Assembly: GCA_035352355.1 (NCBI GenBank)
Contig: DAOPXM010000009.1
Location: 39,957-103,956, forward strand
Origin: Deltaproteobacteria bacterium
Lineage (GTDB): Bacteria; Desulfobacterota; Desulfomonilia; UBA1062
Direction of reading: 5' to 3'
Length of the DNA: 64,000 nucleotides
How positions within the stretch are numbered: position 1 is the first letter of the stretch; each line of letters begins with the position of its first letter. The position numbers and the translations under genes are program-made. The notes under the pieces were generated by a model. That model was not told where the DNA came from. It saw nothing but the letters and a program-made list of their open reading frames with translations, and ran no database searches. Positions 16,341 to 44,605 of the stretch are shown here, piece by piece.

Positions 16341-16471
16341 GTTCCGCATTGTCCTTGTAAGAACAATAGTATATATAGCCCGGCAGCACTATCCCGCAGA
16401 GATGTGTACGTGACCGTGCCAGAGCACCTGCGCAACCATTCATGTCACGAAACTGAGGACAGAGGAGAAGC

Positions 16472-17992: not shown

Positions 17993-17995
17993 GGG

Positions 17996-20892: not shown

Positions 20893-20935
20893 GCGGTCCC
20901 TCCTTCGGTGCTGCTGGCCGTGGCCATATGGCGCC

Positions 20936-24638: not shown

Positions 24639-24839
24639 CATATCCTCCTCGGTCTGGGGTGCGCTGAGAGCTGGTTTTCCTGAAATGCCTTCAGGATATT
24701 GATCGGGGTATGGTGTATCATCCACGCTACCTCAAGATCATTCATGGCTGCTGTGTGGGCTATTTTATATCTTCTCAGTATCATTTATGAATATACAGCA
24801 AGTAACATAGGGAAGGCAATTTAAAAAAGTGTGAAAGGT

Positions 24840-25505: not shown

Positions 25506-25792
25506 GGGTGCAGACAGGGGCGGCCTTTGGAGAAAACCCCGGATTACCATGAGTTACCAAGGAAAGGTTTCGAACAATTCCGGCCTGGGGGAAGGGTCCG
25601 TGGAATTCCTCCCTACTACCACACAGGGTGAAGGCGTACCTTCTAAGGTACCGGAAAAAAAGTTTAATCATCGGTGACTGAATAGTGAACCACCGTTCAG
25701 TTTCCACTTGATACGAACCCTTACTCGTGGTATGTCAGTTTCGACATGGGTGTCATGTATCAGAGGTCCGCAGAAATAATAAGGAGGGACAA

Positions 25793-26299
25793 GTGGCAGG
25801 TATTGATACGACTCAAATGGGCGCGGGGTTGGAGGAATTTTCCTCGGAACAACTCGCAAAAGTCGATGAGATCATTCTCAAGTTCAAGTCAAAGCCGGGC
25901 GCACTGATCCCGGTGCTGGAAGAGGTCCAGGATGTGTGCGGATATCTTCCCATGAGTCTTCAGCTTCGCGTGGCCAAGGGACTGGGCATCCCGGTGGCCA
26001 ACGTGTACGGCGTGGTGACTTTCTACTCATTCTTCACAATGGTCCCCAGAGGAAAGCACGTCATCAGGGTGTGCCTCGGCACGGCCTGCTACGTGAGGGG
26101 CGGCCAGAAGATCCTCGAATCTCTGGTCGGCACGCTGGGCATCGCACCTGGTGAGTGTACGGCGGACAGGAACTTCTCCCTCGAAACCGTGCGCTGTCTC
26201 GGCGCCTGCGGTCTGGCTCCGGTTGTTGTGATCGATGAAGATACTCATGGCCAGGTGAAGCCGGCAAAGCTCGATAGAATCCTGGCCGAGTACCGATAG
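25793..26299 (+). CDS. hndA: NuoE-like [2Fe-2S] subunit of NAD(P)-linked [FeFe]-hydrogenase (HndA/HydC)
   Basis: VCLGTACYVRGG (Cx4C) and RCLGACGLAP (Cx3C). GTG start at 25793, 4 nt after AAGGAGGG. Confidence 0.9.
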   Translation: MAGIDTTQMGAGLEEFSSEQLAKVDEIILKFKSKPGALIPVLEEVQDVCGYLPMSLQLRVAKGLGIPVANVYGVVTFYSFFTMVPRGKHVIRVCLGTACYVRGGQKILESLVGTLGIAPGECTADRNFSLETVRCLGACGLAPVVVIDEDTHGQVKPAKLDRILAEYR

Positions 26300-26308
26300 G
26301 AGGGTGAC

Positions 26309-26698
26309 ATGGCGAAGCTGACTATTAACGATCTCAAGAAGATCAAGGAAAAGGTTGAAAAAGAGGATCAGTTCCGGGCAGGCACCAAGCGCGTGAAGCT
26401 GACGGTTCACATGGGCACCTGCGGAATCGCGTCCGGCGCCAAGGGCATCCTCGATACGTTCATGAATGAAATCAGCGAAGCCAATGTGGAGGACGTGCTC
26501 ATCACCACGTCCGGCTGCATCGGCATCTGCTCCCGCGAACCCCTTGCGACGGTTGAAGAGCAGGGTAAGGAAGCCATCGTCTACGAGTACCTCACCGAGA
26601 ACAAGGCACGCCAGATCTTCAAGCGGCACGTCCTGGCCGGCGAGATCCAGACGGAGTTCGTCCTGGCACGGGGCAAAGAGCAGGAAGGGGGGAAGTAA
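26309..26698 (+). CDS. hndB: small thioredoxin-like [2Fe-2S] ferredoxin subunit (HndB-like)
   Basis: VHMGTCGIASGA and SGCIGICSREP; 129 aa. Lies between the NuoE-like and NuoF-like genes, as in Hnd operons. Confidence 0.8.
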   Translation: MAKLTINDLKKIKEKVEKEDQFRAGTKRVKLTVHMGTCGIASGAKGILDTFMNEISEANVEDVLITTSGCIGICSREPLATVEEQGKEAIVYEYLTENKARQIFKRHVLAGEIQTEFVLARGKEQEGGK

Positions 26699-29600
26699 AT
26701 GAAGGTCTTTCGAGCTCATATACTGGTATGCGGCGGTACCGGCTGCAGGGCGTCCGGAAGCGAGGACGTCCATGGGGCAGTCGTCAGGGAAATAGCGGCA
26801 AAAGGGCTCTCAGATGAGGTCGCCATCGTCGAAACCGGCTGCAACGGTTTCTGCGCAGCAGGCCCCATCATGGTCATCTACCCCGAGGGCACCTTCTATC
26901 AGTACGTCAAGAGTGACGACGTAAAAGAGATCATCGAAGAGCACATCATCAAGGGCCGCCCGGTCCAGAGGCTCATGTACAGGGAGCCCGTCACCGAGAA
27001 GGCCATCCCCCACATGCTCGACATCCCCTTCTTCGGCAAGCAGCAGCTCATCGCTCTGAAGAACAGGGGCCTCATCGACGCCGAGAAGATCGACGAGTAC
27101 ATCGCCCGCGACGGCTACCTGGGCGCTGCCAAGGCGCTCACCGAGATGACCCAGGACGAGGTCATCGAGGAGGTGAAGAAGTCCGGTCTCCGCGGCAGAG
27201 GCGGCGGCGGTTTCCCCACCGGCATGAAGTGGCAGTTCGCCAAGAAGTCCCAGAGCGACATCAAGTTCATCCTCTGCAACGCCGACGAGGGCGACCCGGG
27301 CGCGTTCATGGACCGCTCGGTCCTCGAAGCCGACCCCCATGCAGTGCTCGAGGGCATGATCATCGGCGGCTATGCCATCGGCGCCAACAAGGGCTACATC
27401 TACTGCCGGGCCGAGTATCCGCTGGCCATCAAGCGCCTCGACATCGCCATCCGGCAGGCCAAGGAGTACGGCCTCCTGGGAGAGAACATCCTGGGCTCCA
27501 ACTACTCCCTGGACATCGAGGTCTACCAGGGCGCAGGCGCGTTCGTCTGCGGCGAAGAGACCGCGCTCATGGCATCCATCGAAGGCAAGCGCGGCATGCC
27601 CAGGCCCAGGCCCCCATTCCCTGCATCCCAGGGCCTGTGGAAGAAACCCTCGGTTCTAAACAACGTCGAAACCTTTGCCAACATCCCGCAGATCGTCCTG
27701 AAGGGTGGGGCATGGTACTCCTCCATCGGCACCGAGCGCTCCAAGGGCACCAAGGTGTTCGCGCTCACCGGTGCGGTGAACAACGTGGGTCTGGTGGAAG
27801 TCCCCATGGGCACCCCCATCGGCGACATCATCTTCGACATCGGCGGCGGCATCCCGGGCGGCAAGCAGTACAAGGCGGCCCAGCTGGGCGGCCCCTCCGG
27901 CGGCTGCATCCCGGCCTCGGCGCTGAACACACTCACCGACTATGAAGAAATCATCAAGCTCGGCGCCATCATGGGCTCCGGCGGCCTCATCGTCATGGAC
28001 GAGGACACCTGTATGGTGGACACGGCCCGGTTCTTCATGGAGTTCTGCCAGGAAGAGTCCTGCGGCAAGTGCACCCCGTGCCGTGAAGGCACCAAGCGCA
28101 TGCTTGAGGTCCTCCACCGGATCTGCCACGGCGAAGGCAAGGATGGGGACATCGAGCTCCTCGAAGAGCTCGCGGCCACCATCAAGGACTCCGCGCTCTG
28201 CGGCCTCGGCCAGACGGCCCCCAACCCCGTGCTCTCCACCATCCGCTACTTCAGGGACGAGTACGAGGCCCACATCTACGACAAGAAGTGCCCGGCAGCG
28301 GTGTGCTCCTCGCTGTTCAAATCCCCATGCCAGTCCGCATGCCCCATCGAGATGGACGTCCCGGCCTACATCGCGCTGATCAGGGCGGGCAGGCTGGAAG
28401 ACGCCTACAGGGTCATGCTCAGGACCAACCCGTTCCCCGGCGTCTGCGGCCGCGTGTGCCCGCAGTTCTGCGCCTCGAAGTGCCGCAGGCAGCAGCTCGA
28501 CGAGCCCATGGCCATCGCGTGGCTCAAGCGCTACATCGCAGACAACGGACGCAAGCCCGTCATCGAAGCCGTACCGGTCACCCGCAAGGAAAAGATCGCG
28601 GTCATCGGCGCAGGCCCGGCCGGTCTCACCGCTGCACAGGACCTGGCGAAGCGCGGCTACAAGGTAACGGTGTTCGAAGAGCTTCCCCATGCGGGCGGCA
28701 TGATGCGCTACGCCATCCCCGAGTACCGGCTCCCGAGAAACATCATCGAGGAAGAGGTGAAGGACATCGAAGCCCTGGGTGTCGAGATCAGGACCAACAC
28801 CAGGGTAGGCAAGGACATCACCTTTGACAAGCTCCGCAAGGACTATGACGTGGTGATTCTCGCAGTGGGCGCGCACAAGAGCTGGACGCTGGACATCGAG
28901 GGCGAAGACCTCCAGGGCGTCTGGGGCGCAACCGAGTTCCTCAGGGAAGTCAACCTGGGCAAGGACGTGAAGATCGGCTCCAAGGTCGCCATCGTGGGCG
29001 GCGGCAACTCCGCCATCGACGCGGCGAGGACCGCCGTGCGTCTCGGCGCCGGCGACGTCACCATTCTCTATCGCAGGGAGCGCAAGGACATGCCTGCCTG
29101 GGAGCATGAGATCGTGGCAGCCGAGCACGAAGGCGTGAAGATCGAATACCTCGTGGCCCCCGTGAAGCTCGTGGGCGAGAAAGGCAAGCTCACCGGCGTG
29201 GTCTGCCAGAAGATGAAGCTGGGCGAGTTCGACCGCTCCGGCAGGCGTAAGCCGGTCCCCATCCCCGGCAGCGAGTACACCATCTCCATCGACACCATCA
29301 TCCCGGCCATCTCCCAGTCGTCCGACACCACCTTCATCCCCGACGGGTCCGACGTGAAGAAGGACAAGTGGGGCGGCATCGAGAAGGTGGCCAAGAGCAA
29401 AAACAGGACGCTCGCCAAGGGCGTGTACATCATCGGCGACGCGGCCACCGGGCCGGCCACGGTGGTGGAAGCCATCGCCATGGGCCACGACGTGGCCAAG
29501 GACGTGGACGCCTCCATCAGGGCCTGGAACAACGAGCCCGCCTACAGGGAGCCCGAGGCCGATAAGATCGACATCCCGTTCGAGGTGAACGAGGAGCTTG

Positions 29601-29740
29601 TCGTCACGCCCAAGGAGTTCATGCCCGAGAAGGAGATCGCGGCGAGGGTGGCCAATTTCGCAGAGGTCGAGTTGGGCTACACGAAAGAAAAGGCCTACAA
29701 AGAGGCGTGCAGATGCCTCAGGTGCGATGCGGAGCTGTAA
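26699..29740 (+). CDS. hndC: NuoF-like flavoprotein subunit (HndC/HydB) fused to a C-terminal GltD/NfnB-like NAD(P)H oxidoreductase
   Basis: Trx-like N-domain (LVCGGTGC...CNGFC). NuoF core (GGGGFPTGMKWQF, ESCGKCTPCREG). Then KKCPAAVCSSLFKSPCQSACP, GVCGRVCPQFCASKCRR, VIGAGPAGLTAA and IVGGGNSAIDAA; 1013 aa. Confidence 0.9.
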   Translation: MKVFRAHILVCGGTGCRASGSEDVHGAVVREIAAKGLSDEVAIVETGCNGFCAAGPIMVIYPEGTFYQYVKSDDVKEIIEEHIIKGRPVQRLMYREPVTEKAIPHMLDIPFFGKQQLIALKNRGLIDAEKIDEYIARDGYLGAAKALTEMTQDEVIEEVKKSGLRGRGGGGFPTGMKWQFAKKSQSDIKFILCNADEGDPGAFMDRSVLEADPHAVLEGMIIGGYAIGANKGYIYCRAEYPLAIKRLDIAIRQAKEYGLLGENILGSNYSLDIEVYQGAGAFVCGEETALMASIEGKRGMPRPRPPFPASQGLWKKPSVLNNVETFANIPQIVLKGGAWYSSIGTERSKGTKVFALTGAVNNVGLVEVPMGTPIGDIIFDIGGGIPGGKQYKAAQLGGPSGGCIPASALNTLTDYEEIIKLGAIMGSGGLIVMDEDTCMVDTARFFMEFCQEESCGKCTPCREGTKRMLEVLHRICHGEGKDGDIELLEELAATIKDSALCGLGQTAPNPVLSTIRYFRDEYEAHIYDKKCPAAVCSSLFKSPCQSACPIEMDVPAYIALIRAGRLEDAYRVMLRTNPFPGVCGRVCPQFCASKCRRQQLDEPMAIAWLKRYIADNGRKPVIEAVPVTRKEKIAVIGAGPAGLTAAQDLAKRGYKVTVFEELPHAGGMMRYAIPEYRLPRNIIEEEVKDIEALGVEIRTNTRVGKDITFDKLRKDYDVVILAVGAHKSWTLDIEGEDLQGVWGATEFLREVNLGKDVKIGSKVAIVGGGNSAIDAARTAVRLGAGDVTILYRRERKDMPAWEHEIVAAEHEGVKIEYLVAPVKLVGEKGKLTGVVCQKMKLGEFDRSGRRKPVPIPGSEYTISIDTIIPAISQSSDTTFIPDGSDVKKDKWGGIEKVAKSKNRTLAKGVYIIGDAATGPATVVEAIAMGHDVAKDVDASIRAWNNEPAYREPEADKIDIPFEVNEELVVTPKEFMPEKEIAARVANFAEVELGYTKEKAYKEACRCLRCDAEL

Positions 29741-29779
29741 GGGCCCCGCAGGTCGTTTTCTTGAAAATGGGGTAAAACT

Positions 29780-31582
29780 ATGGCGAATGTCAATGTAACT
29801 ATTGATAATATAAAAGTCAGTGTCGAAGAGGGATCCACCATCCTCGATGCGGCCAAGGCCGCCGGCATCAAGATACCCACCCTGTGCGCATGGCCTGAGA
29901 TCGATCACAGACCCGGCGCATGCAGGGTGTGCGTAGTCGAGGTTGACGGTCAGAGGAACCTCGTCGCCTCCTGCGTGTTCCCGGTGAACGAGGGCATGGT
30001 GGTCAAGACCACCACGGAGCGGGTGCGCAAGGCAAGGAAGCTCAACGTCGAGCTCCTGCTTTCGAACCACCCCACCGAGTGCAACGTCTGCGTGCGCAAC
30101 GGCAACTGCGACCTCCAGGTCGTGGCCGAGGCCGTGGGCCTGCGCGAGGTGCGCTTCACGTATCCCCAGTACGTTGCAACAGACTATATCGACGACTCGA
30201 GCCCGTCCGTGGTGCGCGACGCCCGGAAGTGCATCAAGTGTTACCGCTGCGTGACCGTGTGCGACCAGGTACAGACCGCCTCGGTCCTGTCCCCCACCTT
30301 CAGGGGCGACGACGTGCGCATCGGCCCGGCGTTCAACCTGCCGCTGCTCGAAACCAACTGCACCAACTGCGGACAGTGCATCCTGGCCTGCCCGGTGGGC
30401 GCCCTGTACGAGAAGGACGACACCGAACACGTCTGGGCTGCGCTCAACGACCCCACGAAGCACGTGGTCGTCCAGGAGGCCCCGGCCATCCGCGCGGCCC
30501 TGGGCGAGGACCTCGGCATGCCGATAGGCTCCCTGGTCACGGGCAAGATGCTCACGGCCTTGAGGAGGCTCGGCTTCGACAAGGTGTTCGACACCAACTT
30601 CACGGCGGACCTCACCATCATCGAGGAAGGCAACGAGCTGCTCCAGCGGGTGAAAACCGGCGGGAAGCTCCCCATGATCACTTCGTGCTCGCCCGGTTGG
30701 ATCAAGTTCTGCGAGCACTTCTATCCCGACCTCCTCGACCACCTCTCCACCTGCAAGTCGCCCCAGCAGATGATGGGCGCCCTCATCAAGACGTACTACG
30801 CCCAGCAGGCGGGCATCGACCCCAAGGACATCGTGTCGGTCTCCATCATGCCCTGCACGGCCAAGAAGTTCGAATGTCAGCGTGATGAGATGCGGGACAG
30901 CGGGTATCAGGACGTGGATTACGTGCTCACCACCCGTGAGCTCAGCCGCATGATCAGGCAGGCGGGCATCGACTTCGCGAGCCTGCCCGATGGCGACTAC
31001 GACAACCCCCTCGGCGAGTACACCGGCGCCGGCACCATCTTCGGCGCAACCGGAGGCGTCATGGAAGCGGCCCTTCGCACGGTGTACGCCGTGGTCACCG
31101 GAACCAATCTCGAAAGCCTCGACATCACCCCGGTCCGCGGACTCGAGGGCGTGAAGGAGGCGGCGGTCGAGGTCGGCCCCCTGGGCAAGGTCAAGGTTGC
31201 CGTCGCCCATGGGCTCAGCAATGCACGTAAGCTCATGGACAGGATCCGTGAAGGCACGGCCGACTATGCCTTCATCGAGGTCATGTGCTGCCCCGGCGGC
31301 TGCATCAGCGGCGGCGGACAGCCCATCGCGCCCAGCAACGAAAAGAGGATCCAGCGCTCCGCAGCCCTCTACAAGGATGACAATGCGGTGCAGAAGTTCC
31401 GCCAGTCTCACGAGAACCCGTCCGTGAAGAGGATCTACGAGGTCTTCCTCAAGGAGCCCCTCGGACACAAGTCCCACGAGCTGCTCCACACGCACTACTG
31501 CAAGCGCGGCACCGATCTGCCCCATGTGAAGGGTGCGGAGCTCGAGGTGAATGAGGAACACGCGACGAAAGCAGCACACTAG
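29780..31582 (+). CDS. hndD: [FeFe]-hydrogenase catalytic subunit (HndD/HydA, M3-type with SSU-like tail)
   Basis: 2Fe-2S (CAWPEIDHRPGACRVC), His-ligated cluster (HPTECNVCVRNGNC), 2x[4Fe-4S], and H-cluster motifs TSCSPGW, MPCTAKKFE and EVMCCPGGCISGGGQP; 600 aa. Confidence 0.95.
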   Translation: MANVNVTIDNIKVSVEEGSTILDAAKAAGIKIPTLCAWPEIDHRPGACRVCVVEVDGQRNLVASCVFPVNEGMVVKTTTERVRKARKLNVELLLSNHPTECNVCVRNGNCDLQVVAEAVGLREVRFTYPQYVATDYIDDSSPSVVRDARKCIKCYRCVTVCDQVQTASVLSPTFRGDDVRIGPAFNLPLLETNCTNCGQCILACPVGALYEKDDTEHVWAALNDPTKHVVVQEAPAIRAALGEDLGMPIGSLVTGKMLTALRRLGFDKVFDTNFTADLTIIEEGNELLQRVKTGGKLPMITSCSPGWIKFCEHFYPDLLDHLSTCKSPQQMMGALIKTYYAQQAGIDPKDIVSVSIMPCTAKKFECQRDEMRDSGYQDVDYVLTTRELSRMIRQAGIDFASLPDGDYDNPLGEYTGAGTIFGATGGVMEAALRTVYAVVTGTNLESLDITPVRGLEGVKEAAVEVGPLGKVKVAVAHGLSNARKLMDRIREGTADYAFIEVMCCPGGCISGGGQPIAPSNEKRIQRSAALYKDDNAVQKFRQSHENPSVKRIYEVFLKEPLGHKSHELLHTHYCKRGTDLPHVKGAELEVNEEHATKAAH

Positions 31583-33415: not shown

Positions 33416-34496
33416 GACTCTCCGCATCATAGAGAAGGCCGCGCAGGGGGACGTGACGGGCAGGGAGGAGATCGTCCGCCTCCTTGAGCTCGATGCACCC
33501 GAAGAGCTAGACGCCCTGTTCAGGGCCGCCGACCGCATGAGAAAGGCCTGCGTGGGGGACGAGATCTTCCTCAGGGGGATCATCGAGTTCTCCGGCTACT
33601 GCAGCAGGAACTGCCACTACTGCGGGCTCAGGGCCCAGAACCGGGAGGTCGTCCGCTACCGGATCCCGGAAGACGAGATCGTGGCCAGGGCTCACGGCCT
33701 CTGGGAAAGGCAGTGCACCACTGTGGTCCTCCAGTCAGGGGAGGACCGCTTCTACGACAGGGAGCGGATGTGCTCGCTGATCCGCAGGATCAAGGCCGAG
33801 ACCGACCTCGCCATCACCCTGTCCATCGGCGAGCGCAGCCTTGAAGACTACCGGGCCTTCAAGGAGGCCGGCGCCGACCGCTACCTGCTTAGGCACGAGA
33901 CGGCAAATGCAGGGCTCTACCGGAAGCTCCATCCCGGCTACGAGCTCGAAGACCGGATTCAGTGCCTGAGATGGCTGAAAGGGCTCGGGTACGAAGTGGG
34001 GTCGGGGTGCATCGTCGGCCTGCCAGGCCAGACCGTGCACGACCTGGCGGACGACGTGCTCCTCATCAGGGCCCTCGACATCGACATGATCGGGGTGGGG
34101 CCGTTCATCCCGCATCCCGGGACGCCGCTCAGGGATGCTCCCGCCGGAAGCACGGACCTGGTCCTGAAGATGCTCGCGGTGCTCAGGCTCCTGACCAGGG
34201 ACACGAACATACCCGCCACCACGGCCCTGGGCGTCCTCGACCCGGGTGCCAGGAGAAATGCGTTCCTCGCCGGGGCGAACGTGTTCATGCCCAACTTCAC
34301 CCCGGTCCGGTACATGGAGCTCTACGAGATCTACCCGGGCAAGGGCCCGGAGGCCGGAACCATCGCAAAGGCATCGGAGGGCGGCTATGTCGCCCTGTTC
34401 GAGGGCATGGGCAGGACCATAGGCAGGGGCTGCGGGTACCGGGAAAAGAAGGCCTGCCCGCGGGAGCCCGGAAGCTGTGCGGGAGGCGCTGCATGA
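33399..34496 (+). CDS. hydE: [FeFe]-hydrogenase maturase HydE (radical SAM)
   Basis: IIEFSGYCSRNCHYCGLRAQN with biotin-synthase-like architecture. GTG start at 33399 (33393 is an alternative) overlaps the 3' end of hydG. Confidence 0.9.
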   Translation: MTCTSETLRIIEKAAQGDVTGREEIVRLLELDAPEELDALFRAADRMRKACVGDEIFLRGIIEFSGYCSRNCHYCGLRAQNREVVRYRIPEDEIVARAHGLWERQCTTVVLQSGEDRFYDRERMCSLIRRIKAETDLAITLSIGERSLEDYRAFKEAGADRYLLRHETANAGLYRKLHPGYELEDRIQCLRWLKGLGYEVGSGCIVGLPGQTVHDLADDVLLIRALDIDMIGVGPFIPHPGTPLRDAPAGSTDLVLKMLAVLRLLTRDTNIPATTALGVLDPGARRNAFLAGANVFMPNFTPVRYMELYEIYPGKGPEAGTIAKASEGGYVALFEGMGRTIGRGCGYREKKACPREPGSCAGGAA

Positions 34497-35875
34497 GGAA
34501 GGAGAAGGACTCCATCGGATATTTCGACATCCCGGATGACGCCTTTTACGGGATCCACACGGCCCGCGCCGTCGACAACTTCGGGGAGGGCAGGCACGAC
34601 GGGCTCTTCGTCACCGCGTACCTGCAGGTGAAGAAGGCCGCGGCCCTGGCCAACGGGGAGCTGGGCTTTCTCGACCCCGAGAGGGCGGGGGCCATCGTCT
34701 CCGCCATCGACGCCCTCATCGCCGACGGTTCGTACGGGGACATCGTGGTGAACCCCCTGAGCGGGGGCGCAGGCACCTCCCTCAACATGAACATAAACGA
34801 GGTGGTGGCAAACCACGCTTTGGCCCTCTCCGGAAGAGGGAAGGGGGACTACGGCCATATCCACCCCCTGGACCACGTGAACCTGCACCAGTCCACCAAC
34901 GACACCTACCCGAGCGCCCTGCGCATCGCCATGCTCGTACACCTGAACCGGCTCGAAGGGGAGCTCGCCTCGCTGCAGGAGGCCCTCCAGGCAAAGGAAA
35001 AGGAGTTCGCGGGCATCGTCAGGCTCGGCCGCACCGAGCTCCAGGACGCCCTGCCCATGACCGTGGGCATGCAGTTCTCGGCGTGGGCCGAGGCCATCGC
35101 CCGGGATCGGTGGCGCATCTTCAAGGCCCGGGAGCGGATCAAGGCGCTCAATCTCGGCGGCACGGCCATCGGAACCGGGTTCAATGCGCCCCGGAGGTAC
35201 ATCTTCCTGGTGCTCGAGAAGCTCAAGGAGATCACCCGGCTGGGTGTGACCCGGGCGGAGAACATGCTCGAGGCCACCCAGAACCTCGACGCGGTGGTTG
35301 AAGTATCCGGGCTCATGAAGACCCTGGCCGTGAACCTCCTGAAGATCGCCGAGGACATCCGGCTCCTGTCCTCCGGCCCTGCGGGCGGGATCGGCGAGCT
35401 CAAGCTCGAGCCCCTCCAGGAGGGATCGTCCATCATGCCCGGCAAGGTCAACCCGGTGATGCCCGAGTTCGTGAGCCAGGCCGCCCTCCTGGTCATGGCC
35501 AACGATCAGGCCATCACCCACGCGGCAGGACTCGGCAACCTCGAGCTCAACCAGTTCTCCCCCCTGGTGGCCACCCTTATGCTCCGGAACTTCACCCTGC
35601 TGTCCAGGGCAGTGACCGGTCTCGACCGAAAGGTGATCAGGACGATCGGGGTGAACGAGGATAGGATGAAGGCGCACCTCACGAACTCGGTGGCCCTGCT
35701 CACCTACCTCACGGCCCACATCGGGCACGACCTTGCCGCCGATGTGTACATGAAGATGAAAGCGAGCGGGAAGAGCGCCCGGGAGATCATCGTTGGAGAA
35801 GGGATCATGACACCTGAGAAATTCGACGAGCTGACCGCGCCGGAGCGGATCAGCATGGCGGGGTACAGGCCATGA
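34493..35875 (+). CDS. aspA: aspartate ammonia-lyase / class II fumarase-family lyase embedded in the hyd maturase cluster
   Basis: Fumarate-lyase signature GSSIMPGKVNPV, and TNDTYPSA. ATGA overlaps at both ends (34493-96 and 35872-75). Confidence 0.85.
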   Translation: MRKEKDSIGYFDIPDDAFYGIHTARAVDNFGEGRHDGLFVTAYLQVKKAAALANGELGFLDPERAGAIVSAIDALIADGSYGDIVVNPLSGGAGTSLNMNINEVVANHALALSGRGKGDYGHIHPLDHVNLHQSTNDTYPSALRIAMLVHLNRLEGELASLQEALQAKEKEFAGIVRLGRTELQDALPMTVGMQFSAWAEAIARDRWRIFKARERIKALNLGGTAIGTGFNAPRRYIFLVLEKLKEITRLGVTRAENMLEATQNLDAVVEVSGLMKTLAVNLLKIAEDIRLLSSGPAGGIGELKLEPLQEGSSIMPGKVNPVMPEFVSQAALLVMANDQAITHAAGLGNLELNQFSPLVATLMLRNFTLLSRAVTGLDRKVIRTIGVNEDRMKAHLTNSVALLTYLTAHIGHDLAADVYMKMKASGKSAREIIVGEGIMTPEKFDELTAPERISMAGYRP

Positions 35876-37458: not shown

Positions 37459-40146
37459 ATGGCGATCACGATTGACGGCAAGGTGTGTGAATTCAGGCCC
37501 GGGCAGACGGTCTACGAGGTGGCGAAGGAGAACGGGATCCACATCCCCGTGCTCTGCCACCACGAGCAGATCCAGCCCGTTGGTGCGTGCAGGGTATGTC
37601 TCGTCGAGGTGGAGGGGGCACGGTCGCTCGTAGCGTCCTGTGCCATGCCCGCTGAGAACAATATGGTGGTCCACACCGGCACGGACCGGGTCATGGCCGC
37701 CCGCAAGCTCTCGGTGGAGCTGCTCCTGACCCAGGGACACCACAACTGCATCACCTGCGAGAGCAGCGGGGACTGCGTCCTGCAGGACCTGGTCTACTCG
37801 CTGGGCATCGAGGAGCCGCGCTTCAGCGCACCCGACAAGTACCTGGAGCTCGAGCAGGGCAACGAAATGATCATCCGCGACATGAACAAGTGCGTGCTGT
37901 GCGGGCTGTGCGTGAGGGCGTGCAACGAGGTGCAGGTCAACCAGGTCCTCGACTACGGCGGAAGAGGCCCCACGGCCACCGTGGGTCCGGCCTTCGGCAA
38001 CACCTATGAGAACTCCGAGTGCGTGTTCTGCGGCGAATGCGTCCGGGTCTGCCCTGTGGGCGCCCTGATCGAGAAGCAGGGCCGGTTCAAGGGCAGGACG
38101 GGCGACCTCCAGAAGGTCAGAACCACCTGCGGCTACTGCGGCGTGGGCTGCCAGATGGACATCAACGTGCGCGACGGCAAGATCGTGAAGGTGACCACGC
38201 CCCGGGAAGGCGCCCCTGCGCCGAACCATGGCAGCCTCTGCATCAAGGGCCGGTTCGGGTACGACTTCATCGGGCATCCTGAGAGGCTGAAGAGCCCCAT
38301 GATCAGGAAAGACGGCGAGCTGAAAGAGGCGAGCTGGGAAGAGGCCATCACGTACGTGGCTGACAGGCTTGCCGCCATCAGGAAGAAACACGGGCCCGAC
38401 GCCATCGCCGGCCTCGCATCGGCCCGGTGCACGAACGAAGAAAACTACCTGTTCCAGAAGTTCCTGCGTGCGGTGATCGGGACCAACAACGTCGATCACT
38501 GCGCCCGACTCTGACACTCCTCCACCGTGGCCGGTCTGGCCACAGCATTCGGTTCCGGCGCCATGACGAACTCCATCGCAGACCTCGAAGAGGCCGACTG
38601 CTTCCTCATCACCGGCACCAACACCACGGAGAACCACCCGGTGATCGCCACCTTCATCAAGCGCGCCGTGACCCAGCGGGGCGCCAAGCTCATCCTGGCG
38701 GATCCCCGGAACATCGACCTGGCGCGGTTCGCGACCGTCTGGCTCCGCCAGAAGCCGGGCACGGACATCGCCTGGATCAACGGCCTCATGAACGTGATCA
38801 TCTCCGAGGGGCTCCTGAACGAGACCTTCATCGCTGAGCGCACCGAGAACTTCGAGGCGGTCAAAGAGGCGGTGAAGAAGTACACTCCCGAGTACGTGGA
38901 GGGGATCGCCGGCATCCCGGCCGAGGACCTCAGGAAGGCGGCACGGCTCTACGCCACGTCGCAGGCCAGCGCCATCGTGTACGCCATGGGCATCACCCAG
39001 CACGTCACGGGTACGGACAACGTGAAGTCCCTGGCCAACCTGGCCATGCTCACGGGCCAGATCGGCAGGCCCGGCACGGGCGTCAACCCCTTGAGAGGGC
39101 AGAACAACGTGCAGGGTGCCTGCGACATGGGCTGCCTGCCCGGGACCCTGCCCGCCTACAAGAAGGTGGTTGAGGCGGCCGAGCGCGGCCCCTTCGAACA
39201 GGCCTGGGGTACCGCTCTACCCGACAAGGTGGGGCTCACCATCCCGAAGATCCTGGATGGTGCCGGCAAAGGCACCGTGAAGGCCCTCCTGGTCATGGGC
39301 GAGAACCCCATGATGTCGGACCCTGATCTCGATCACGTCAAGCACAACCTAGGCAAGCTCGACCTCCTCGTGGTGCAGGACATCTTCCCCACCGAGACGA
39401 GCGAGCTCGCCCACGTGGTTCTTCCGAGCGCCGCCTGGGCGGAGAAGGACGGCACCTTCTCAAACACCGAGCGCCGCGTCCAGAGGGTGCGCAAGGCAGT
39501 GGAAGCCCCCGGCGAGGCGCTCGAGGACTGGCGGATTCTCACCATGCTGGCGAACAGGCTCGGGTCTGGCTGGAGCTACGGGTCGGCCCGTGAGATCGCG
39601 GACGAAATCAGCAGGGTGACGCCGTCGTATGCCGGCATCACCTACGACCGCATCGAGCACGTGGGCCTGCAGTGGCCCTGCCTCAACAAGGACCATCCGG
39701 GCACGCCCATCCTCCACGGCGCGGCGTTTACCCGAGGCAAGGGCCTGTTCTCGGTGTGCGAGCACATCCCGCCCGCCGAGGAGCCGGATGCGGACTACCC
39801 GTACGTGCTCACTACGGGCAGGATCCTCTACCAGTACCACACCGCCACCATGAGCAGGCGCTCCAAAGGCCTGGTGTCCCGGACCCCGGAGGCGTTCATC
39901 GAGCTCAACCCTGATGACGCGCAGTCCCTGGGAATCGGCCATGGCGATTCCGTGGAGGTCTCTTCCAGGAGGGGCTCCATCACGGTCGCTGCCGAAGTAT
40001 CGAACCGGTGCGACAAAGGGGTGGTGTTCATACCCTTCCACTACAGCGAGGCAGCGGTGAACAGGCTCACCATCACTGCCATCGACCCGGTGGCGAACAT
40101 ACCCGAGTACAAGGTGTGCGCCGTCAGCTTGAAGAAAGCCTCATAA
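37459..40146 (+). CDS. fdhA: selenocysteine-containing formate dehydrogenase alpha subunit (NuoG-like N-terminus plus Mo/W-bisPGD domain)
   Basis: Two track ORFs (37459-38514 and 38527-40146) are in the same frame, separated only by the TGA at 38512-14 in the conserved context NVDHCARL-U-HSSTVAGL. N-terminal 2Fe-2S, His-cluster and 2x[4Fe-4S]. CGYCGVGCQM MopB cluster; 895 codons. Confidence 0.9.
38527..38543 (+). promoter_or_regulatory. SECIS-like hairpin 12 nt downstream of the UGA
   Basis: GTGGCC-GGTCT-GGCCAC forms a 6-bp perfect stem. The GGUCU apical loop resembles the GGUC loop of the E. coli fdhF SECIS. Confidence 0.6.
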
Positions 40147-40543: not shown

Positions 40544-41821
40544 ATGAGCAATGAAAACCTGGAAAGCAAACGCTGGGGCATAGCCATGGCAGCTGTCGTC
40601 ATGCAGCTGTGCCTTGGCACGGTGTACGCATGGTCGGTCTTCAAGAAGCCACTCATGGCGAACCATCCATGGGGCGAGACGCAGATACAGATCACCTTCA
40701 TGATCTTCATGTTCTGCATCGGCACCGCCGCTGCGTTCGGCGGGACCCTCGTGGACAAGAAGGGCCCGAAGTTCGTGGCCACGATCGGAGGCGTCCTCTT
40801 CGGCCTGAGCACCCTGCTTGCCGGGTATGCAGACCAGATCGGCAGCCTGACGCTCCTGTACCTGTCCTGGGGCCTCATCGGCGGCATCGGCAACGGCTTC
40901 TGCTACGTGACCCCCATCGCGACCCTGATCCGCTGGTTCCCTGACAAGAGGGGCCTGGTGACGGGTCTGGCGGTCATGGGCTTCGGCCTCGGCGCGTTCT
41001 TCATGGGCAAGATCGCTCCTGCCATGATCACGTCCTTCGCAGGCGGCTTGACCGCCTCGGGTGTGGCCCAGACCTGGTACATCTGGGGAGTCATCTTCCT
41101 GGTCCTGGTGGTCGGCTCTGCGCTTCTCTTCAAGAATCCCCCCGCCGGCTGGCTGCCTGCCGGGTTCAACCCCGCCGCCGGCGGCGGGGTGTCCGCAGCC
41201 AATTCGCTCACCTTCGGCGAGGCGGTGAAGACGCCCCAGTGGTGGATGCTCTGGGCCATGCTCTTCCTGAACGTGTCCGCGGGCCTCGGCCTCATCTCCC
41301 AGCTCTCTCCCCTGGCGCAGGAGTTCTACAAGTCTCTGGTCACCGATGCTGCAGTGCTCAATGACCCGGACACCCTGACCAAGGTCCTCGCTGCCGCTGG
41401 CGGCACCGTGGTCTCGATCTCGGCCATCTTCAACGGCCTCGGTCGTCTCTTCTGGGCACGAGTGTCAGACACCATCGGCCGGAAGGCTGTGTTCGTCACC
41501 ATGTTCGCCTCCCAGGCGGTCATCTACATCCTCGTGGCCATGGGCATCATCTCCGGCTACTGGCTCTTCCTCGTGGCGTCCTGCTACCTGCTCGCATGCT
41601 ACGGCGGCGGCTTCGCCACCATGCCCGCCTTCGCGGCAGACAGCTTCGGGCCCGGCTACATCGGCAAGGTGTACGGCTTCATGCTGACCGCATGGTCGGC
41701 TGCAGGCCTACTGGGCCCCTACGTCTTCGCGACGTTCAAGGACCAGGCCCTCATGATCGCAGCGGCTCTGCTCATCGCGGGTCTTATCATCACCCTGGCA
41801 TTCAAGAAACGCGAGGCTTAA
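40544..41821 (+). CDS. MFS transporter, oxalate/formate antiporter (OFA) family
   Basis: About 12 hydrophobic segments. N-terminal MQLCLGTVYAWSVF is typical of OFA-family members from memory. GGAGGGAG RBS. Confidence 0.8.
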   Translation: MSNENLESKRWGIAMAAVVMQLCLGTVYAWSVFKKPLMANHPWGETQIQITFMIFMFCIGTAAAFGGTLVDKKGPKFVATIGGVLFGLSTLLAGYADQIGSLTLLYLSWGLIGGIGNGFCYVTPIATLIRWFPDKRGLVTGLAVMGFGLGAFFMGKIAPAMITSFAGGLTASGVAQTWYIWGVIFLVLVVGSALLFKNPPAGWLPAGFNPAAGGGVSAANSLTFGEAVKTPQWWMLWAMLFLNVSAGLGLISQLSPLAQEFYKSLVTDAAVLNDPDTLTKVLAAAGGTVVSISAIFNGLGRLFWARVSDTIGRKAVFVTMFASQAVIYILVAMGIISGYWLFLVASCYLLACYGGGFATMPAFAADSFGPGYIGKVYGFMLTAWSAAGLLGPYVFATFKDQALMIAAALLIAGLIITLAFKKREA

Positions 41822-41874: not shown

Positions 41875-41904
41875 GGGAGGCAGGAGGGATCCTGCCTCCC
41901 TTTT
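41875..41904 (+). terminator. rho-independent terminator after the MFS transporter gene
   Basis: 11-bp stem GGGAGGCAGGA/TCCTGCCTCCC with a 4-nt loop, followed by TTTT. Confidence 0.65.
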
Positions 41905-41968
41905 CATGTGCCGTCAGGCGCGGCCGCAGGGTCTTTTCGTTGACACGTCCGGGCCCTTGTGTTAACCC

Positions 41969-42370
41969 TTGAAAAGTGAGGTGAGATTGAGGCTTTCAGA
42001 GATCAGGGACCTATTGGACGCCAAGGTGATCACGGGTGAGGACAAGCTCGACCTGGACATCACCACGGCGTTCGGCGCTGACCTGATGAGCGACGTGCTG
42101 GCATTTGCCAGGTCCGGATGCCTGCTCATCACCGGCCTCTCGAACCCGCAGTCGGTGCGGACCGCCTATGCGCTGGACATCGCGGCCATCCTGGTGTGCA
42201 GGGGCAAACCGCTCGCCGACAAGTTCATCGAGATCGCCCGTGAGCTCAGCATCCCCATCCTGTGGACCAGACTGATCATGTTCGAGGTATGCGGCAGGCT
42301 CTACCAGGAAGGACTGACCGGCTGCATCTGCCAGGCGAGCGGGACAGAGGAAAAGCACCTTGCCAAGTGA
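41969..42370 (+). CDS. DRTGG-domain protein
   Basis: LSEIRDLLDAKVITGE...FGADLMSDVLAF...LLITGLSNPQSVRTA...ILVCRGK. Non-ATG start (TTG at 41969; GTG/TTG alternatives lie within 20 nt). Confidence 0.75.
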   Translation: MKSEVRLRLSEIRDLLDAKVITGEDKLDLDITTAFGADLMSDVLAFARSGCLLITGLSNPQSVRTAYALDIAAILVCRGKPLADKFIEIARELSIPILWTRLIMFEVCGRLYQEGLTGCICQASGTEEKHLAK

Positions 42371-42797
42371 CGAATACCTCGAAGGGATCTACTACATCCA
42401 GGGCAGGGACTTCGTCGATGCCGGGGTGGTTTCCAGCGAGATCAAACGCACGCTGAAAGACAAGGGCATACCCGAGAACATCATCCGCAGGGTTGCCATC
42501 ATCGCCTTTGAAGCCGAGGTCAACATCATCTCCTATGCCGACCAGGGAACCATCCAGCTGTTCATCGAGCCGGAAGCCATCACCATCGAGGCCGTGGACA
42601 TCGGGCAGGGGATCCCGGACATTGAGCAGGCCCTGGTGGAGGGGTTCTCCACAGCGGACGACGCCATCCGGGAGATGGGCTTTGGCGCCGGTATGGGCCT
42701 GGCCAACATCAAGAAGTCCTCGGACATTTTCAAGCTCGCCTCGGAGCCGGGCAGTGGGACTCATCTGACGAGCATCATCAAGCTCAATGGACAATAA
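42360..42797 (+). CDS. GHKL-type ATPase, anti-sigma-factor/Ser-Thr-kinase-like (RsbW-like), no H-box
   Basis: FEAEVNII (N-box-like), DIGQGIPD (G1) and GFGAGMGLANI (G2); 145 aa. TTG start with AGAGGA 8 nt upstream; 11-nt overlap with the previous gene. Confidence 0.7.
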   Translation: MPSDEYLEGIYYIQGRDFVDAGVVSSEIKRTLKDKGIPENIIRRVAIIAFEAEVNIISYADQGTIQLFIEPEAITIEAVDIGQGIPDIEQALVEGFSTADDAIREMGFGAGMGLANIKKSSDIFKLASEPGSGTHLTSIIKLNGQ

Positions 42798-42815
42798 AAC
42801 CAAGGAGTAGGGGAA

Positions 42816-43157
42816 ATGACCCTTGAAACCCTTGTGGAACAGCTCAACCTGAAATGCAAATGCTGCTGGGAGAAGCTGAAAACCACCGAGATCAAAGGCG
42901 GCTATGCCGGCGATCTCCTCAGCGACGTCATGGCAAACAGCCAGGAGGGGAACGTCTGGGTGACCAGACAGGTCCATGTGAACATCGTGGCTGTGGCTTC
43001 CCTGAAGGAGCACGCCGGCATCGTCATCGTCCAGGGCGCCAACCCTGAGAAGGACACCATCGACCGGGCCACCCGGGAAGGCATTCCCATCATGGTGAGC
43101 GACCTGCCCGAGTTCGAGCTGGTGGGAAGGATCTACCAGCTCATCCAGAACGGGTGA
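42816..43157 (+). CDS. DRTGG-domain protein (second copy, N-terminal CKCC)
   Basis: YAGDLLSDVMAN...VWVTRQVHVNIVAVASL...IVIVQGANPEKDTIDRATREGIPIM. AAGGAG RBS. Confidence 0.75.
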   Translation: MTLETLVEQLNLKCKCCWEKLKTTEIKGGYAGDLLSDVMANSQEGNVWVTRQVHVNIVAVASLKEHAGIVIVQGANPEKDTIDRATREGIPIMVSDLPEFELVGRIYQLIQNG

Positions 43158-43193
43158 GCGCACTTCCTGATCCTTCAGGACAGAGGTGAGAAG

Positions 43194-43940
43194 GTGCCGA
43201 GAGTCTTCCGCTGCAATCTCCACGTGCATACCTGTCTTTCCCCCTGCGGAGATCTGGACATGCACCCGAGCGCCATCGTGGAGCAGGCACTGCGTACGGG
43301 ACTGGACATCATCGCCATCAGCGACCACAACTCCTCGGAAAACGTGGGTTACGTCATCAAGGCCGCGAGCGGCAAGCCGCTCACCGTCATCCCGGGCATG
43401 GAGGTGACCACACGGGAGGAGGTCCACGTCCTTGCCCTCTTCGACGACCTGTCGCGCCTCTACGAGCTCCAGGAAACGGTCTATGCCCAGCTCGAAGGCC
43501 TGAACAACGAGGAGGTCTTCGGGCTGCAGCCCATCGTCACCGAGGAGGGCGACGTGGAGGGCTTCAACGAGCGGCTCCTCATCGGCGCCACGAAGGTATC
43601 CCTGGAGGACCTCGTCGCCCGCATCCACGGGCTGGGCGGGATTGCCATCTCCGCCCACATCGACCGCCCGGCGTTCGGCATCATCGGCCAGCTTGGTTTC
43701 GTGCCCCCCAACGTGCCCTTCGATGCCCTGGAGATCTCCTGGAGGATGGGCATCAAAGGCGGCAGGGAGAGGTTTCCCGAGCTCGCCGGCTATCCCTTCC
43801 TCACCTCGTCGGACGCCCACTTCATCGACGACATGGGCAAGGCGTGCACGGCCATGATGCTTGAAGGGCCGAGCCTTTCGGAGATCCGTATGGCCCTGAG
43901 GCGAGAAGGGGGCAGGCACGTCCTGGAGGACGCATGCTAG
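43194..43940 (+). CDS. PHP-domain phosphoesterase
   Basis: NLHVHTCLSPCGD, AISDHNS, EVHVL, ISAHIDR and SSDAHF give the complete set of PHP metal-ligand motifs. GTG start after AGAGGTGAG. Confidence 0.85.
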   Translation: MPRVFRCNLHVHTCLSPCGDLDMHPSAIVEQALRTGLDIIAISDHNSSENVGYVIKAASGKPLTVIPGMEVTTREEVHVLALFDDLSRLYELQETVYAQLEGLNNEEVFGLQPIVTEEGDVEGFNERLLIGATKVSLEDLVARIHGLGGIAISAHIDRPAFGIIGQLGFVPPNVPFDALEISWRMGIKGGRERFPELAGYPFLTSSDAHFIDDMGKACTAMMLEGPSLSEIRMALRREGGRHVLEDAC

Positions 43941-44488
43941 AGCTTTCCCTGCACATCCTCGACATTGCCGAAAACTCCACCAGGGCGAACGCCTCCCTCG
44001 TCGAGATCACCGTGACGGAGGATCTTGTCAACGACGTCTTCTCCTTCGAGATCAGGGACAACGGCGACGGCATGGACAGTCAGACCATCGAGAGGGCCAT
44101 GGACCCCTTCTACACCACGAAGAAGGTCCGCAGGGTGGGCCTCGGGCTCCCCATGCTGGCCCAGGCGTGCGAGCGGGCAGGCGGGCGCTTCGAGATCGAG
44201 TCGGTCGTGGGCGCTGGCACCCGGGTGTACGCGGGCTTCAGGCACTCCCACATCGACCGGCAGCCCCTGGGCGACATCGCAGGGGTGGTGAGCATGCTCA
44301 TCCTCGGCAACCCGGAAAAAGACTTCCTTTACACTCACGTCATCAACGGGAGCGTCTACTCCCTCGACACCCGGGAGATCCGCCGGGAGCTGGGCGACAT
44401 CCCGCTCAACCACATGGAGGTGATCAACATGATCAGGGACAACATCCAGGAAGGCATCCTCGAGCTCAGGGAGATGCATGCGGCCTAG
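43934..44488 (+). CDS. GHKL-type ATPase (HATPase_c-like), no H-box or receiver
   Basis: LHILDIAENSTRANA (N-box), IRDNGDGMD (G1) and VGLGLPMLAQ (G2); 184 aa. 7-nt overlap with the PHP gene. Confidence 0.7.
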   Translation: MLELSLHILDIAENSTRANASLVEITVTEDLVNDVFSFEIRDNGDGMDSQTIERAMDPFYTTKKVRRVGLGLPMLAQACERAGGRFEIESVVGAGTRVYAGFRHSHIDRQPLGDIAGVVSMLILGNPEKDFLYTHVINGSVYSLDTREIRRELGDIPLNHMEVINMIRDNIQEGILELREMHAA

Positions 44489-44605
44489 CCGGCAGGCTCC
44501 AACGCGTTCACTCATTGATTTTTCTCGCGTATTACTGTATGCCTAGTAATACATTATTATTTCATAATCATAGTTTTTGACAAAGTATCTGGAGGTTTTG
44601 AATAC

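Follow-up and report, generated by a model that had tools for sequence, protein, structure and literature searches.

We analysed a 64,000-nt stretch of contig DAOPXM010000009.1 from a Deltaproteobacteria bacterium (the window), and in it a cassette of five plus-strand genes, here called g1 to g5, which lies between an MFS (major facilitator superfamily) transporter gene and icmF (Table 1). An earlier reading, made from the sequence alone (the sequence-only reading), had taken this cassette for an autonomous operon of two small DRTGG proteins, two GHKL ATPases and a PHP phosphoesterase, and had proposed that it controls H2/formate metabolism. All five open reading frames (ORFs) stand on the plus strand at the coordinates of Table 1, and the tight packing then described holds, with g1 and g2 overlapping by 11 nt, gaps of 18 and 36 nt on the two sides of g3, and a 7-nt overlap between g4 and g5. 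Their third-position GC content (GC3 = 0.82-0.91) matches the coding signature of this 63% GC window. The domain content is borne out by Pfam and by the paralogy of g1 and g3, and the same Pfam searches detected no DHp, receiver, STAS, sigma factor or DNA-binding (helix-turn-helix) domain in the five proteins, as had been said. The surroundings are likewise as described, with fdhA, a transporter gene (of the MFS type) and the hnd genes nearby.

In the window the cassette appears, judging from its flanking signals, to be a transcription unit of its own, from which read-through into icmF is possible because no terminator was found between g5 and icmF. The strong terminator reported upstream is indeed present, and its hairpin sequence is also found in the relatives L004 and L005. 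The −35 element of the putative cassette promoter (TTGACA, or TTGACT in L001) and its (T/A)TG-extended −10 element align across the window and L001-L005. This promoter, conserved in relatives, would imply a transcription start at about 41973-76, so that g1 more likely starts at TTG 41987 or 41993, which are preceded by a GAGGTG Shine-Dalgarno sequence, than at 41969. On the downstream side, the TTGA-N17-TATG pattern before icmF also aligns in L001-L005. The putative icmF −10 element is overlapped by a perfect 8-bp inverted repeat at 44529-44552, GTATTACT-N8-AGTAATAC, which is not obviously conserved in relatives and may be an operator. An Rfam scan of the whole window gave no matches, and thus no riboswitch or leader was detected; no mobile-element genes were found beside the cassette in the window.

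Table 1. Features of the cassette and of its surroundings in the 64,000-nt window
Feature	Position	Strand	Remarks
g1, small DRTGG protein	41969-42370	+	133 aa as listed; probable true start gives about 125-127 aa
g2, minimal GHKL ATPase, SpoIIAB/RsbW (HATPase_c_2) type	42360-42797	+	145 aa
g3, second small DRTGG-like protein	42816-43157	+	113 aa; paralog of g1
g4, PHP-domain metal-dependent phosphoesterase	43194-43940	+	248 aa; family-specific HxHTCLSPC motif
g5, GHKL ATPase	43934-44488	+	184 aa; histidine-kinase-type CA core at residues 1-100
Intrinsic terminator of the upstream MFS transporter gene; 5′ boundary of the cassette	41875-41900	+	11-bp stem, 8 GC pairs, T-run
Probable sigma-70 promoter of the cassette	41940-41967	+	−35 TTGACA at 41940-45, 16-17 nt spacer, TGTG-extended −10 at 41958-67
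Promoter-like site of icmF; 3′ boundary of the cassette	44515-44543	+	TTGATT, 17 nt, TG-TATGCC
nuoE-hndB-nuoF (GltD fusion) diaphorase module	25727-29740	+	Domain assignments; orthologs adjoin the cassette in most other genomes
nuoE-hndB-nuoF (GltD fusion)-hydA, hndABCD-like	25727-31582	+	Domain assignments
HndB/HydD-like gene	26309-26698		Beside nuoE
NuoF fused to GltD-like module	26699-29740	+	1013 aa; same GltD-like module as in the H-domain fusion
[FeFe]-hydrogenase H-domain fused to GltD-like NAD(P)H flavoprotein	21216-24725	−	1168 aa
Group C HydS, C-terminal FeS (iron-sulfur) motif and PAS domain	19174-21030	−	
SpoIIE/PP2C phosphatase	17996-19156	−	Part of the group C HydS module
Orphan NtrB-type CA-domain protein	15780-16340	+	186 aa
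Aspartate ammonia-lyase/fumarase-class gene	33962-35875		Between hydE and hydF; Lyase_1 from residue 187 of the listed ORF
Selenocysteine FdhA	37459-40146		In-frame TGA at 38512-14
MFS transporter	40544-41821		Between FdhA and the cassette
IcmF	from 44606		Downstream of the cassette; cobO beyond

The cassette is a widespread and deeply conserved accessory module, and its recurrence is far beyond chance. Its PHP protein has 6022 database relatives at E <= 1e-10, and an exhaustive profile search at E <= 1e-30 divides the PHP subfamily into 713 clusters at 50% identity. Scanning one genome per GTDB species gave at least 585 loci, the best 80 of which were analysed by tblastn with the window proteins. 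The five genes stand in the window order in 62 of these 80, with median distances of 31, 30, 74 and 6 nt between successive genes, and the set recurs in several other lineages; the gene-neighbourhood check suggested by the sequence-only reading thus reveals strong co-occurrence. In 59 of the 79 loci bearing g5, nuoE comes directly after it, followed by hndB, nuoF and either HydA or FdhA, and therefore the cassette is usually the 5′ part of a structural operon. Its autonomy, then, is a property of the window clade and does not extend to the other loci. The spacer between g5 and nuoE typically measures 20-35 nt and carries a Shine-Dalgarno sequence; cis-attenuation at this place was considered and rejected, since the short spacers hold nothing but the Shine-Dalgarno sequence and the few long, structured ones are mutually unrelated. 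No Rfam element, conserved terminator or conserved RNA structure was found in the g5-nuoE spacers. The upstream neighbours vary among loci and include MFS, carbonic anhydrase, hybrid kinase and HdrA-like genes.

The window belongs to a minority clade (L001-L006, L009, L016 and L081-83), where the cassette follows fdhA and an MFS gene, or a carbonic anhydrase gene, and precedes icmF-cobO. In this clade the cassette proteins are 68-86% identical to those of the window; this is comparable with the flanking IcmF and FdhA and indicates that all five are under ordinary purifying selection. In the window itself, nuoE-hndB-nuoF lies 12 kb upstream of the cassette and the gene after g5 is icmF.

Several loci contain an additional gene between g2 and g3. 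Its product, of 420-460 aa, combines two N-terminal [4Fe-4S] motifs with an H-domain and a C-terminal Cx2Cx4Cx16C motif and contains no PAS domain; by this architecture the putative sensory [FeFe]-hydrogenases of group D (M2e), TamHydS for instance, have been defined in the literature (PMC8163306). The resulting six-gene form, g1-g2-HydS-g3-PHP-g5, occurs in Terriglobia, Ignavibacteria, Phascolarctobacterium succinatutens, a spore-forming Firmicute, Dictyoglomaceae and the locus L096. In the spore-forming Firmicute it precedes an NAD-linked formate dehydrogenase; in Ignavibacteria and another metagenome-assembled genome (MAG; loci L087 and L088) it lies upstream of NuoE-HndB-NuoF-NuoG-like-FlpD and a [NiFe] HoxYH-type hydrogenase, so that in these two loci an [FeFe]-type 'sensor', the group D HydS, would be tied to a [NiFe] enzyme. 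The Phascolarctobacterium locus (L092) reads g1-g2-HydS-g3-PHP-NuoE-g5-HndB-NuoF-HydA and, together with Cthe_0335-0342 of Clostridium thermocellum, which it matches, substantiates the statement in the sequence-only reading that the set stands beside NuoEF-type [FeFe]-hydrogenase operons in Firmicutes. No group D HydS was found in the 64-kb window, where the nearest match, at 27% identity, is the group C HydS-PAS protein, and most Syntrophales loci among the 80 lack HydS too. What the sequence-only reading had missed is that the window cassette represents the group D sensory-hydrogenase module without its HydS, displaced to a place beside icmF.

Two further observations concern loci of this kind. 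P. succinatutens is a cultured human-gut Negativicute in which the complete six-gene module stands before hydABC (L092, 6437-14928); the cluster of its PHP protein counts 786 members, with index entries in about 1500 blocks of the assembly collection, so that the module is a common one in gut metagenomes. In a KSB1 MAG (L097, 1818-6184), a HydS-like protein carries HisKA and HATPase_c as a fusion and is thus a true histidine kinase (681 aa); its gene is followed by those for two single receivers and for a receiver-PAS-kinase, and the whole group stands immediately before g3-PHP-g5-HndB-NuoE-NuoF-HydA.

Parts of this arrangement have been reported before. In C. thermocellum, the M2e hydrogenase is Cthe_0335 and a 'histidine kinase', Cthe_0339, lies inside the downstream hydABC operon (PMC3561251, PMC3990059); by its gene position, Cthe_0339 is the equivalent of g5. 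'Kinase' genes between sensory and bifurcating hydrogenases have already been read as regulatory (PMC3561251; PMC8163306), a kinase-like ATPase next to TamHydS was noted earlier, and TamHydS is reported beside an AraC regulator (PMC8163306). According to a 2026 paper, the partners of group D HydS are still to be identified (PMC13104023). Our literature search found no description of the five-gene set, its DRTGG and PHP members, the fusions or any function, in agreement with what the sequence-only reading had stated. The neighbourhood is thus known in part, through the 'histidine/serine kinase' noted earlier between sensory and bifurcating hydrogenases.

The set is also seen in eight contexts from other lineages and in three variant loci among the 80, most of them with HydS between g2 and g3. 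Of eight contexts taken from a range of diverse 50%-identity representatives, seven have nuoE/nuoF; on the 8-kb contig of L095, which is related to a Poribacteria record, they were not seen. In Phycisphaerae, the set lacks HydS, has PHP and g5 fused, and is inserted between nuoF and a NuoG-like gene of a [NiFe]-hydrogenase operon. In L092, L093, L094 and L096, g5 stands between nuoE and hndB, and in L089 the PHP-g5 fusion overlaps a NuoG-like gene, next to hycI/hypA. The constant companion is therefore the NuoE-HndB-NuoF diaphorase unit, whatever the catalytic subunit (HydA, FdhA or [NiFe] HoxYH), and the H2/formate specificity assumed at the outset has to be replaced by a linkage to this unit. 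We infer from this linkage that nuoE-hndB-nuoF may be the functional partner or target of the cassette. Within the unit, a HndB/HydD-like gene is found in every context seen with nuoE/nuoF, and its product might serve the cassette as docking site or target. A fixed adjacent DNA-binding output was rejected, since the upstream neighbours vary and NtrC-like genes were seen close to the cassette in no more than 4 of about 97 loci.

Some of these contexts deserve a description of their own. The HndB/HydD-like gene, coding for a thioredoxin-fold protein of 120-128 aa, stands beside nuoE in L084, L087, L088, L089, L091, L092, L093, L096 and L097. The [NiFe] operons of L087 (7204-17341), L088 (7205-17317) and L089 (780-11459) consist of NuoE/HndB/NuoF, a NuoG-like subunit, FlpD, the small subunit and HoxH, and the cassette precedes them or sits inside. 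In L096 (7739-13034), NuoE-g5-HndB-NuoF is followed by genes for RnfD- and RnfE/A-like membrane subunits, which take the place of a hydrogenase or formate dehydrogenase.

Gene fusions give a view of which cassette proteins belong together. PHP and g5 are fused in four separate 50%-identity clusters (P0379, P0385, P0392 and P0415, one with the Phycisphaerae record and one with Deltaproteobacteria), and g3 and PHP in one (P0458); these fusions argue that g3, g4 and g5 act as one physical unit. In four loci (L089, L094, L095 and L096), Phycisphaerae and Dictyoglomaceae among them, g2 carries a fused pair of CBS domains, and this argues for nucleotide-type ligands as input.

Of the two DRTGG proteins, g1 is recognised by Pfam (PF07085, 36.2 bits against a cut-off of 25.2; E 5.6e-9) and has homologs of 117-126 aa with the conserved motifs A37-D-L-x-S41-D-V-L, T55-G-L and R78-G-K. 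The match of g3 is below threshold (19.4 bits against 25.2; E 9e-4); even so, its paralogy with g1 is clear (31% identity, E 2e-12), its orthologs in L088 and L096 are called DRTGG, and the top PDB match of its family profile is the HPr kinase N-terminal domain (E 0.034). Residues D33, L35, S36, V38, W48, T50, Q52, H54 and N56 of g3 are invariant, and the D-L-x-S-D-V motif and a downstream conserved Thr are common to the two proteins. S41 and T55 of g1 and S36 and T50 of g3 are candidate phospho-acceptors, conserved in at least 90% of homologs, the g3 pair being invariant. The DRTGG, HPr-kinase N-terminal and PucR N-terminal fold family is associated with ligand-binding or regulatory domains. 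The CKCC motif pointed out earlier is present in g3 and is no family feature, since C14 is found in 11, C16 in 40 and C17 in 19 of 81 homologs; as a candidate Fe-S or redox motif it was rejected on this ground.

The protein g2 consists of a catalytic and ATP-binding (CA) domain only. It matches Pfam HATPase_c (35.5 bits against a cut-off of 26.4) and HATPase_c_2 (28.7 against 27.4), and TIGR01925 spIIAB at E 1.4e-9, below the equivalog cut-off. Single-sequence searches of g1 and g2 against the PDB gave no matches; the family profiles alone did, and that of g2 retrieves structures of the anti-sigma F factor SpoIIAB at E 1.4e-9 and kinases (CheA, histidine kinases) at 7e-5 or worse. Since the g2 profile finds SpoIIAB far ahead of kinases, g1 and g2 resemble a partner-switch pair. 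As reported from the sequence, the N, G1 and G2 boxes are intact in both GHKL proteins, with E51/E53/N55 (N box), D80-x-G-x-G (G1) and G107-F-G-A-G-M-G-L (G2) invariant in g2, and D10, N14, D42-G44-G46 and G69-G71 invariant in g5.

The PHP domain of g4 (PF02811) scores 34.1 bits against a cut-off of 26.4, and PHP_C is matched in addition. The metal-ligand motifs are intact, as had been claimed, with H10, H12, H45, E70, H78, H155, D207 and H209 invariant in 24 homologs, and the family-specific cysteines C14 and C18 of HxHTCLSPC are invariant in 81 of 81. In the public annotation, the window protein (P0001, 238 aa) starts 10 codons after GTG 43194 and would thereby lose the invariant H10 of the HxH motif, so that the longer model is correct. 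PHP folds are the top matches of the AlphaFold2 (AF2) model (pLDDT 91.6), and Foldseek places EndoQ first (E 2e-13, TMq 0.71), followed by TM0559, BAD_1165, RNase AM, the Cv1693 pAp phosphatase and Pol III PHP domains. The match to EndoQ covers about half of that protein and its PHP core only (TMt 0.46, 19% identity); g4 does not have the architecture of Endonuclease Q (about 400 aa), whose regions beyond the PHP core are absent from it. Histidinol-phosphate phosphatase is found merely at E 0.08, and PHP tyrosine or protein phosphatases (CpsB/YwqE) occur neither in the top 50 Foldseek matches nor among the sequence matches. The sequence neighbours (EndoQ, RNase AM, TrpH-like proteins and Pol III PHP domains) and the NCBIfam matches (RNase RNM and 3′,5′-nucleoside bisphosphate phosphatase) agree with the model. 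By fold and sequence g4 thus falls in the nuclease/nucleotidase branch of the PHP fold rather than with the protein phosphatases, as the sequence-only reading had it, although a phosphoprotein activity remains compatible.

As for g5, it matches Pfam HATPase_c at 54 bits (cut-off 26.4) as well as HATPase_c_3. By sequence, its CA core is of the histidine-kinase type, with a PF(Y/F)TTK...GLGL motif and KinB, ZraS and AtoS as top matches. It is followed by a conserved C-terminal domain of about 80 aa with an H-x-D-R-Q-P-L-G-D motif. His104 and His106 lie just past the CA core; in one alignment His106 is invariant, and in the other the two residues each reach at least 90% conservation. The AF2 model (pLDDT 91.2) fits along its whole length (180-200 columns) to the N-terminal regions of MutL, PMS2, MLH1 and TopoVI-B, of which g5 covers about half in the case of the MutL N-terminal fragment (TMt ~0.3), whereas kinases match across the 83-103-aa CA core alone. 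The highest-identity fold matches to this core are to BCKDK (34-35% over 83 aa).

From the observed gene content, order, linkage, optional HydS, fusions and intact ATP and metal sites, we tentatively propose, at somewhat less than an even chance, that the module is an ATP-dependent, partner-switch-like regulator of NuoE-HndB-NuoF-type enzymes; every mechanistic step that follows is conditional. The genes g1 and g2 are arranged like spoIIAA-spoIIAB or rsbV-rsbW, so that the SpoIIAB-like GHKL protein would bind or serine-phosphorylate the small antagonist, and in the full module HydS would occupy the position that a sigma factor has after such a pair. A second unit, probably a physical complex, would be made of g3, g4 and g5, where the DRTGG sensor or adaptor and the GHKL ATPase may control PHP or be opposed by it. 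The inputs could be H2, through HydS where it is present, and the nucleotide or redox state, through DRTGG (and CBS in some lineages). The output would most likely be a post-translational control of NuoE/HndB/NuoF, comparable to that of PDK, BCKDK and their phosphatases on dehydrogenase complexes; such an output is favoured because no DNA-binding protein travels with the set and because its genes are interleaved with structural genes. The idea that the kinase-like proteins and the phosphoesterase act against each other on the DRTGG proteins, as first proposed, is plausible as a hypothesis.

A number of points weigh against this proposal. The 80 loci are the closest relatives, mostly of one order (Syntrophales), so that they do not count as independent events. 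In the window and its clade the set stands apart from nuoEF, and L081-83 and L095 have no nuoEF directly beside it, the flanks there being partly sampled. The g1-g2 pair resembles a partner switch, but Pfam detects no STAS domain, PP2C phosphatase or sigma factor in the cassette. The model of g4 is nearest to nucleases and nucleotidases and not to PHP protein phosphatases; that of g5 resembles MutL, PMS2 and TopoVI-B over its whole length while kinases fit its CA core alone, and g5 may be a dimerising ATPase clamp rather than a kinase. Genes of assembly factors, too, are typically interleaved with structural genes. Finally, phospho-acceptor, target and output are all still candidates, and the partner-switch steps are themselves inferred. 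Of the five members, none has confident homology to a characterised system, which leaves the sequence-only reading standing on this point.

The more specific version of the regulator, in which the set is the transducer of group D sensory hydrogenases, acts post-translationally and with ATP on NuoE-HndB-NuoF and, in HydS-less forms, relies on nucleotide or redox sensing by the DRTGG proteins, is possible but somewhat doubtful.

The rather unlikely, though serious, alternative suggested by the two models is an ATP-gated phosphodiesterase or nuclease, where the MutL-like g5 and the DRTGG protein g3 would gate an EndoQ/RNase AM-like PHP enzyme and g1-g2 would tune it. Its substrate would be RNA (for instance the mRNA of its own operon, so that control would be post-transcriptional) or a nucleotide signal or cofactor such as pAp, Ap4A or an NAD(P) derivative, with no phosphoprotein involved. 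Fold, sequence and NCBIfam matches of g4 all lead to EndoQ, RNase AM/RNM and pAp phosphatase, g5 aligns over 180-200 columns with MutL, PMS2, MLH1 and TopoVI-B, and the PHP-g5 and g3-PHP fusions would be natural in such an enzyme; moreover, CBS and DRTGG domains are described from CBS-pyrophosphatases regulated by nucleotides (AMP, Ap4A). Against this, g4 with its 248 aa covers half of EndoQ, without the additional regions of that enzyme, and the CA core of g5 is by sequence of the histidine-kinase type. Nor is there a mechanistic tie between a nuclease and NuoEF enzymes, and the spacers between g5 and nuoE hold no Rfam element or conserved RNA structure.

It is unlikely that the proteins are assembly, maturation or protection factors of the NuoE-HndB-NuoF flavin/FeS module, with the GHKL proteins as chaperones or clamps and PHP processing a cofactor. 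The co-transcription and interleaving with structural genes (L092, L093, L094 and L096; L089), the linkage to the diaphorase module whatever its catalytic subunit, and the HndB/HydD-like gene that accompanies nuoE/nuoF in every such context would all fit. HydAB of Syntrophus aciditrophicus, a related enzyme, was active when made in E. coli (PMC7311640; co-expression of neighbouring genes is not stated in the accessible part of that paper), which disfavours a maturation role as far as this part of the source goes. Furthermore, the presence of HydS and CBS domains in the module speaks for sensing, g2 belongs with the anti-sigma/Ser-kinase proteins, and the module persists without adjacent nuoEF in the window clade and, on the visible contig, in L095.

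A split, non-canonical two-component system, in which g5 or g2 would be the catalytic half and the acceptor and response regulator would lie elsewhere and control hyd/fdh transcription, is improbable. The CA core of g5, nearest to the NtrB, AtoS and ZraS class, and the conserved His104/His106 right after it would suit such a system, as would the NtrC-type sigma-54 activator directly upstream in L091, the receivers nearby in L097 and the AraC regulator beside TamHydS (PMC8163306). Yet none of the five proteins contains DHp/HisKA (0/5), the additional 80 aa of g5 come after the CA core, NtrC-like genes are as infrequent near the cassette as given above (4/~97 loci), and the window promoter is sigma-70-like and not of the −24/−12 type. 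An unrelated defence or DNA-repair island adjoining redox genes by chance, for which a weak likeness of the PHP domain to the anti-phage Ppl (PADLOC, 1.1e-7) and to TrlF might speak, has a negligible probability and is effectively refuted by synteny, given that the nuoE/nuoF linkage recurs in many phyla and at three different insertion positions, that PADLOC has no match for 4 of the 5 proteins and that no mobile-element genes flank the window cassette.

The cassette of the window lies in a hydrogen/formate island, whose order is a group C HydS module, HydA-GltD, nuoE-hndB-nuoF-hydA, hydG, hydE, an aspartase-like gene, hydF, FdhA, MFS, the cassette, icmF and cobO. The first of these is a second and different putative H2-sensing module (15780-21030), and a DUF1846 gene lies amid its group C HydS, SpoIIE/PP2C and NtrB-type CA genes. 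The fusion of NuoF with the GltD-like module is kept in most related loci. Through the in-frame TGA, which falls within the motif CARL-U-HSSTVAGL, FdhA appears as two ORFs (37459-38514 and 38527-40146), and a selenocysteine formate dehydrogenase is therefore indicated.

In fermenters, syntrophs and gut bacteria, the H2 and formate economy is determined by NuoEF-type hydrogenases and formate dehydrogenases, enzymes that are also targets of bio-hydrogen engineering; to our knowledge, the regulation of their activity is essentially unknown. Group D 'sensory' hydrogenases have been spectroscopically characterised for years with no signalling partner known. Candidate HydS partners can now be named as five genes that form a fixed set and whose tie is to the diaphorase module, not to hydrogenase in itself, and the fusions PHP-g5, g3-PHP and CBS-g2 show which of its proteins likely touch. 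Cultured carriers of the module include C. thermocellum, Thermoanaerobacter and P. succinatutens, and the free-standing HydS-less copy in the window indicates that the module can work without a hydrogenase-like sensor.

The set can be compared with several known systems. With the CBS-pyrophosphatases (CBS-DRTGG-CBS) it shares the association of DRTGG and CBS in nucleotide sensing, as CBS-g2 stands beside DRTGG genes in L089, L094, L095 and L096; there, however, DRTGG is an internal domain, whereas the DRTGG proteins of the cassette are free-standing and of 113-133 aa. MutL (for g5) and EndoQ (for g4) are the best fold-level matches, alongside RNase AM, and ATPase-hydrolase fusions exist naturally, but the coverage is partial, about half in each case, and the context of the cassette is redox metabolism and not DNA repair. 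The GHKL serine kinases PDK and BCKDK, which with their phosphatases PDP and PPM1K switch dehydrogenase complexes, offer a stand-alone GHKL protein, no His-Asp phosphorelay and a genetic tie to a large NAD-linked redox enzyme. They have an N-terminal four-helix domain, absent in the cassette, and PP2C-type phosphatases, and the analogy is one of logic alone.

There is also a likeness to SpoIIAA-SpoIIAB-sigmaF-SpoIIE and RsbV-RsbW-sigmaB-RsbX. In sequence and size g2 is SpoIIAB-like, a small antagonist-like gene overlaps it upstream, and the order of antagonist, kinase, target and phosphatase is preserved, with the phosphoesterase coming later. By their domain assignments, on the other hand, the putative antagonists of the cassette are DRTGG and not STAS proteins, the phosphoesterase is PHP and not PP2C, no sigma factor is present and the second GHKL protein is of another type. 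The sole SpoIIE/PP2C gene of the window is part of another module, that of the group C HydS. Group C (M2f) HydS-PAS modules, known from the T. saccharolyticum hfs operon, R. albus HydS and TmHydS, are likewise putative H2-sensing modules of [FeFe]-hydrogenase operons; they use PAS and PP2C where the cassette uses DRTGG and PHP, and since both coexist in the window they are not redundant copies.

In the group D HydS clusters upstream of HydABC (TamHydS in Thermoanaerobacter mathranii, Cthe_0335-0342, and Csac_1857-1864 in Caldicellulosiruptor), the accessory genes are orthologous to those of the cassette and keep their order. The literature on them (papers PMC3561251 and PMC8163306) mentions a 'kinase' gene and never the five-gene set. 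The layout of L092 corresponds to the published Cthe_0335 (HydS), Cthe_0338 (NuoE), Cthe_0339 (the 'histidine kinase', that is g5) and Cthe_0340-42. Compared with these clusters, the copy in the window lacks HydS, does not adjoin nuoE and has its own promoter, after fdhA/MFS and before icmF.

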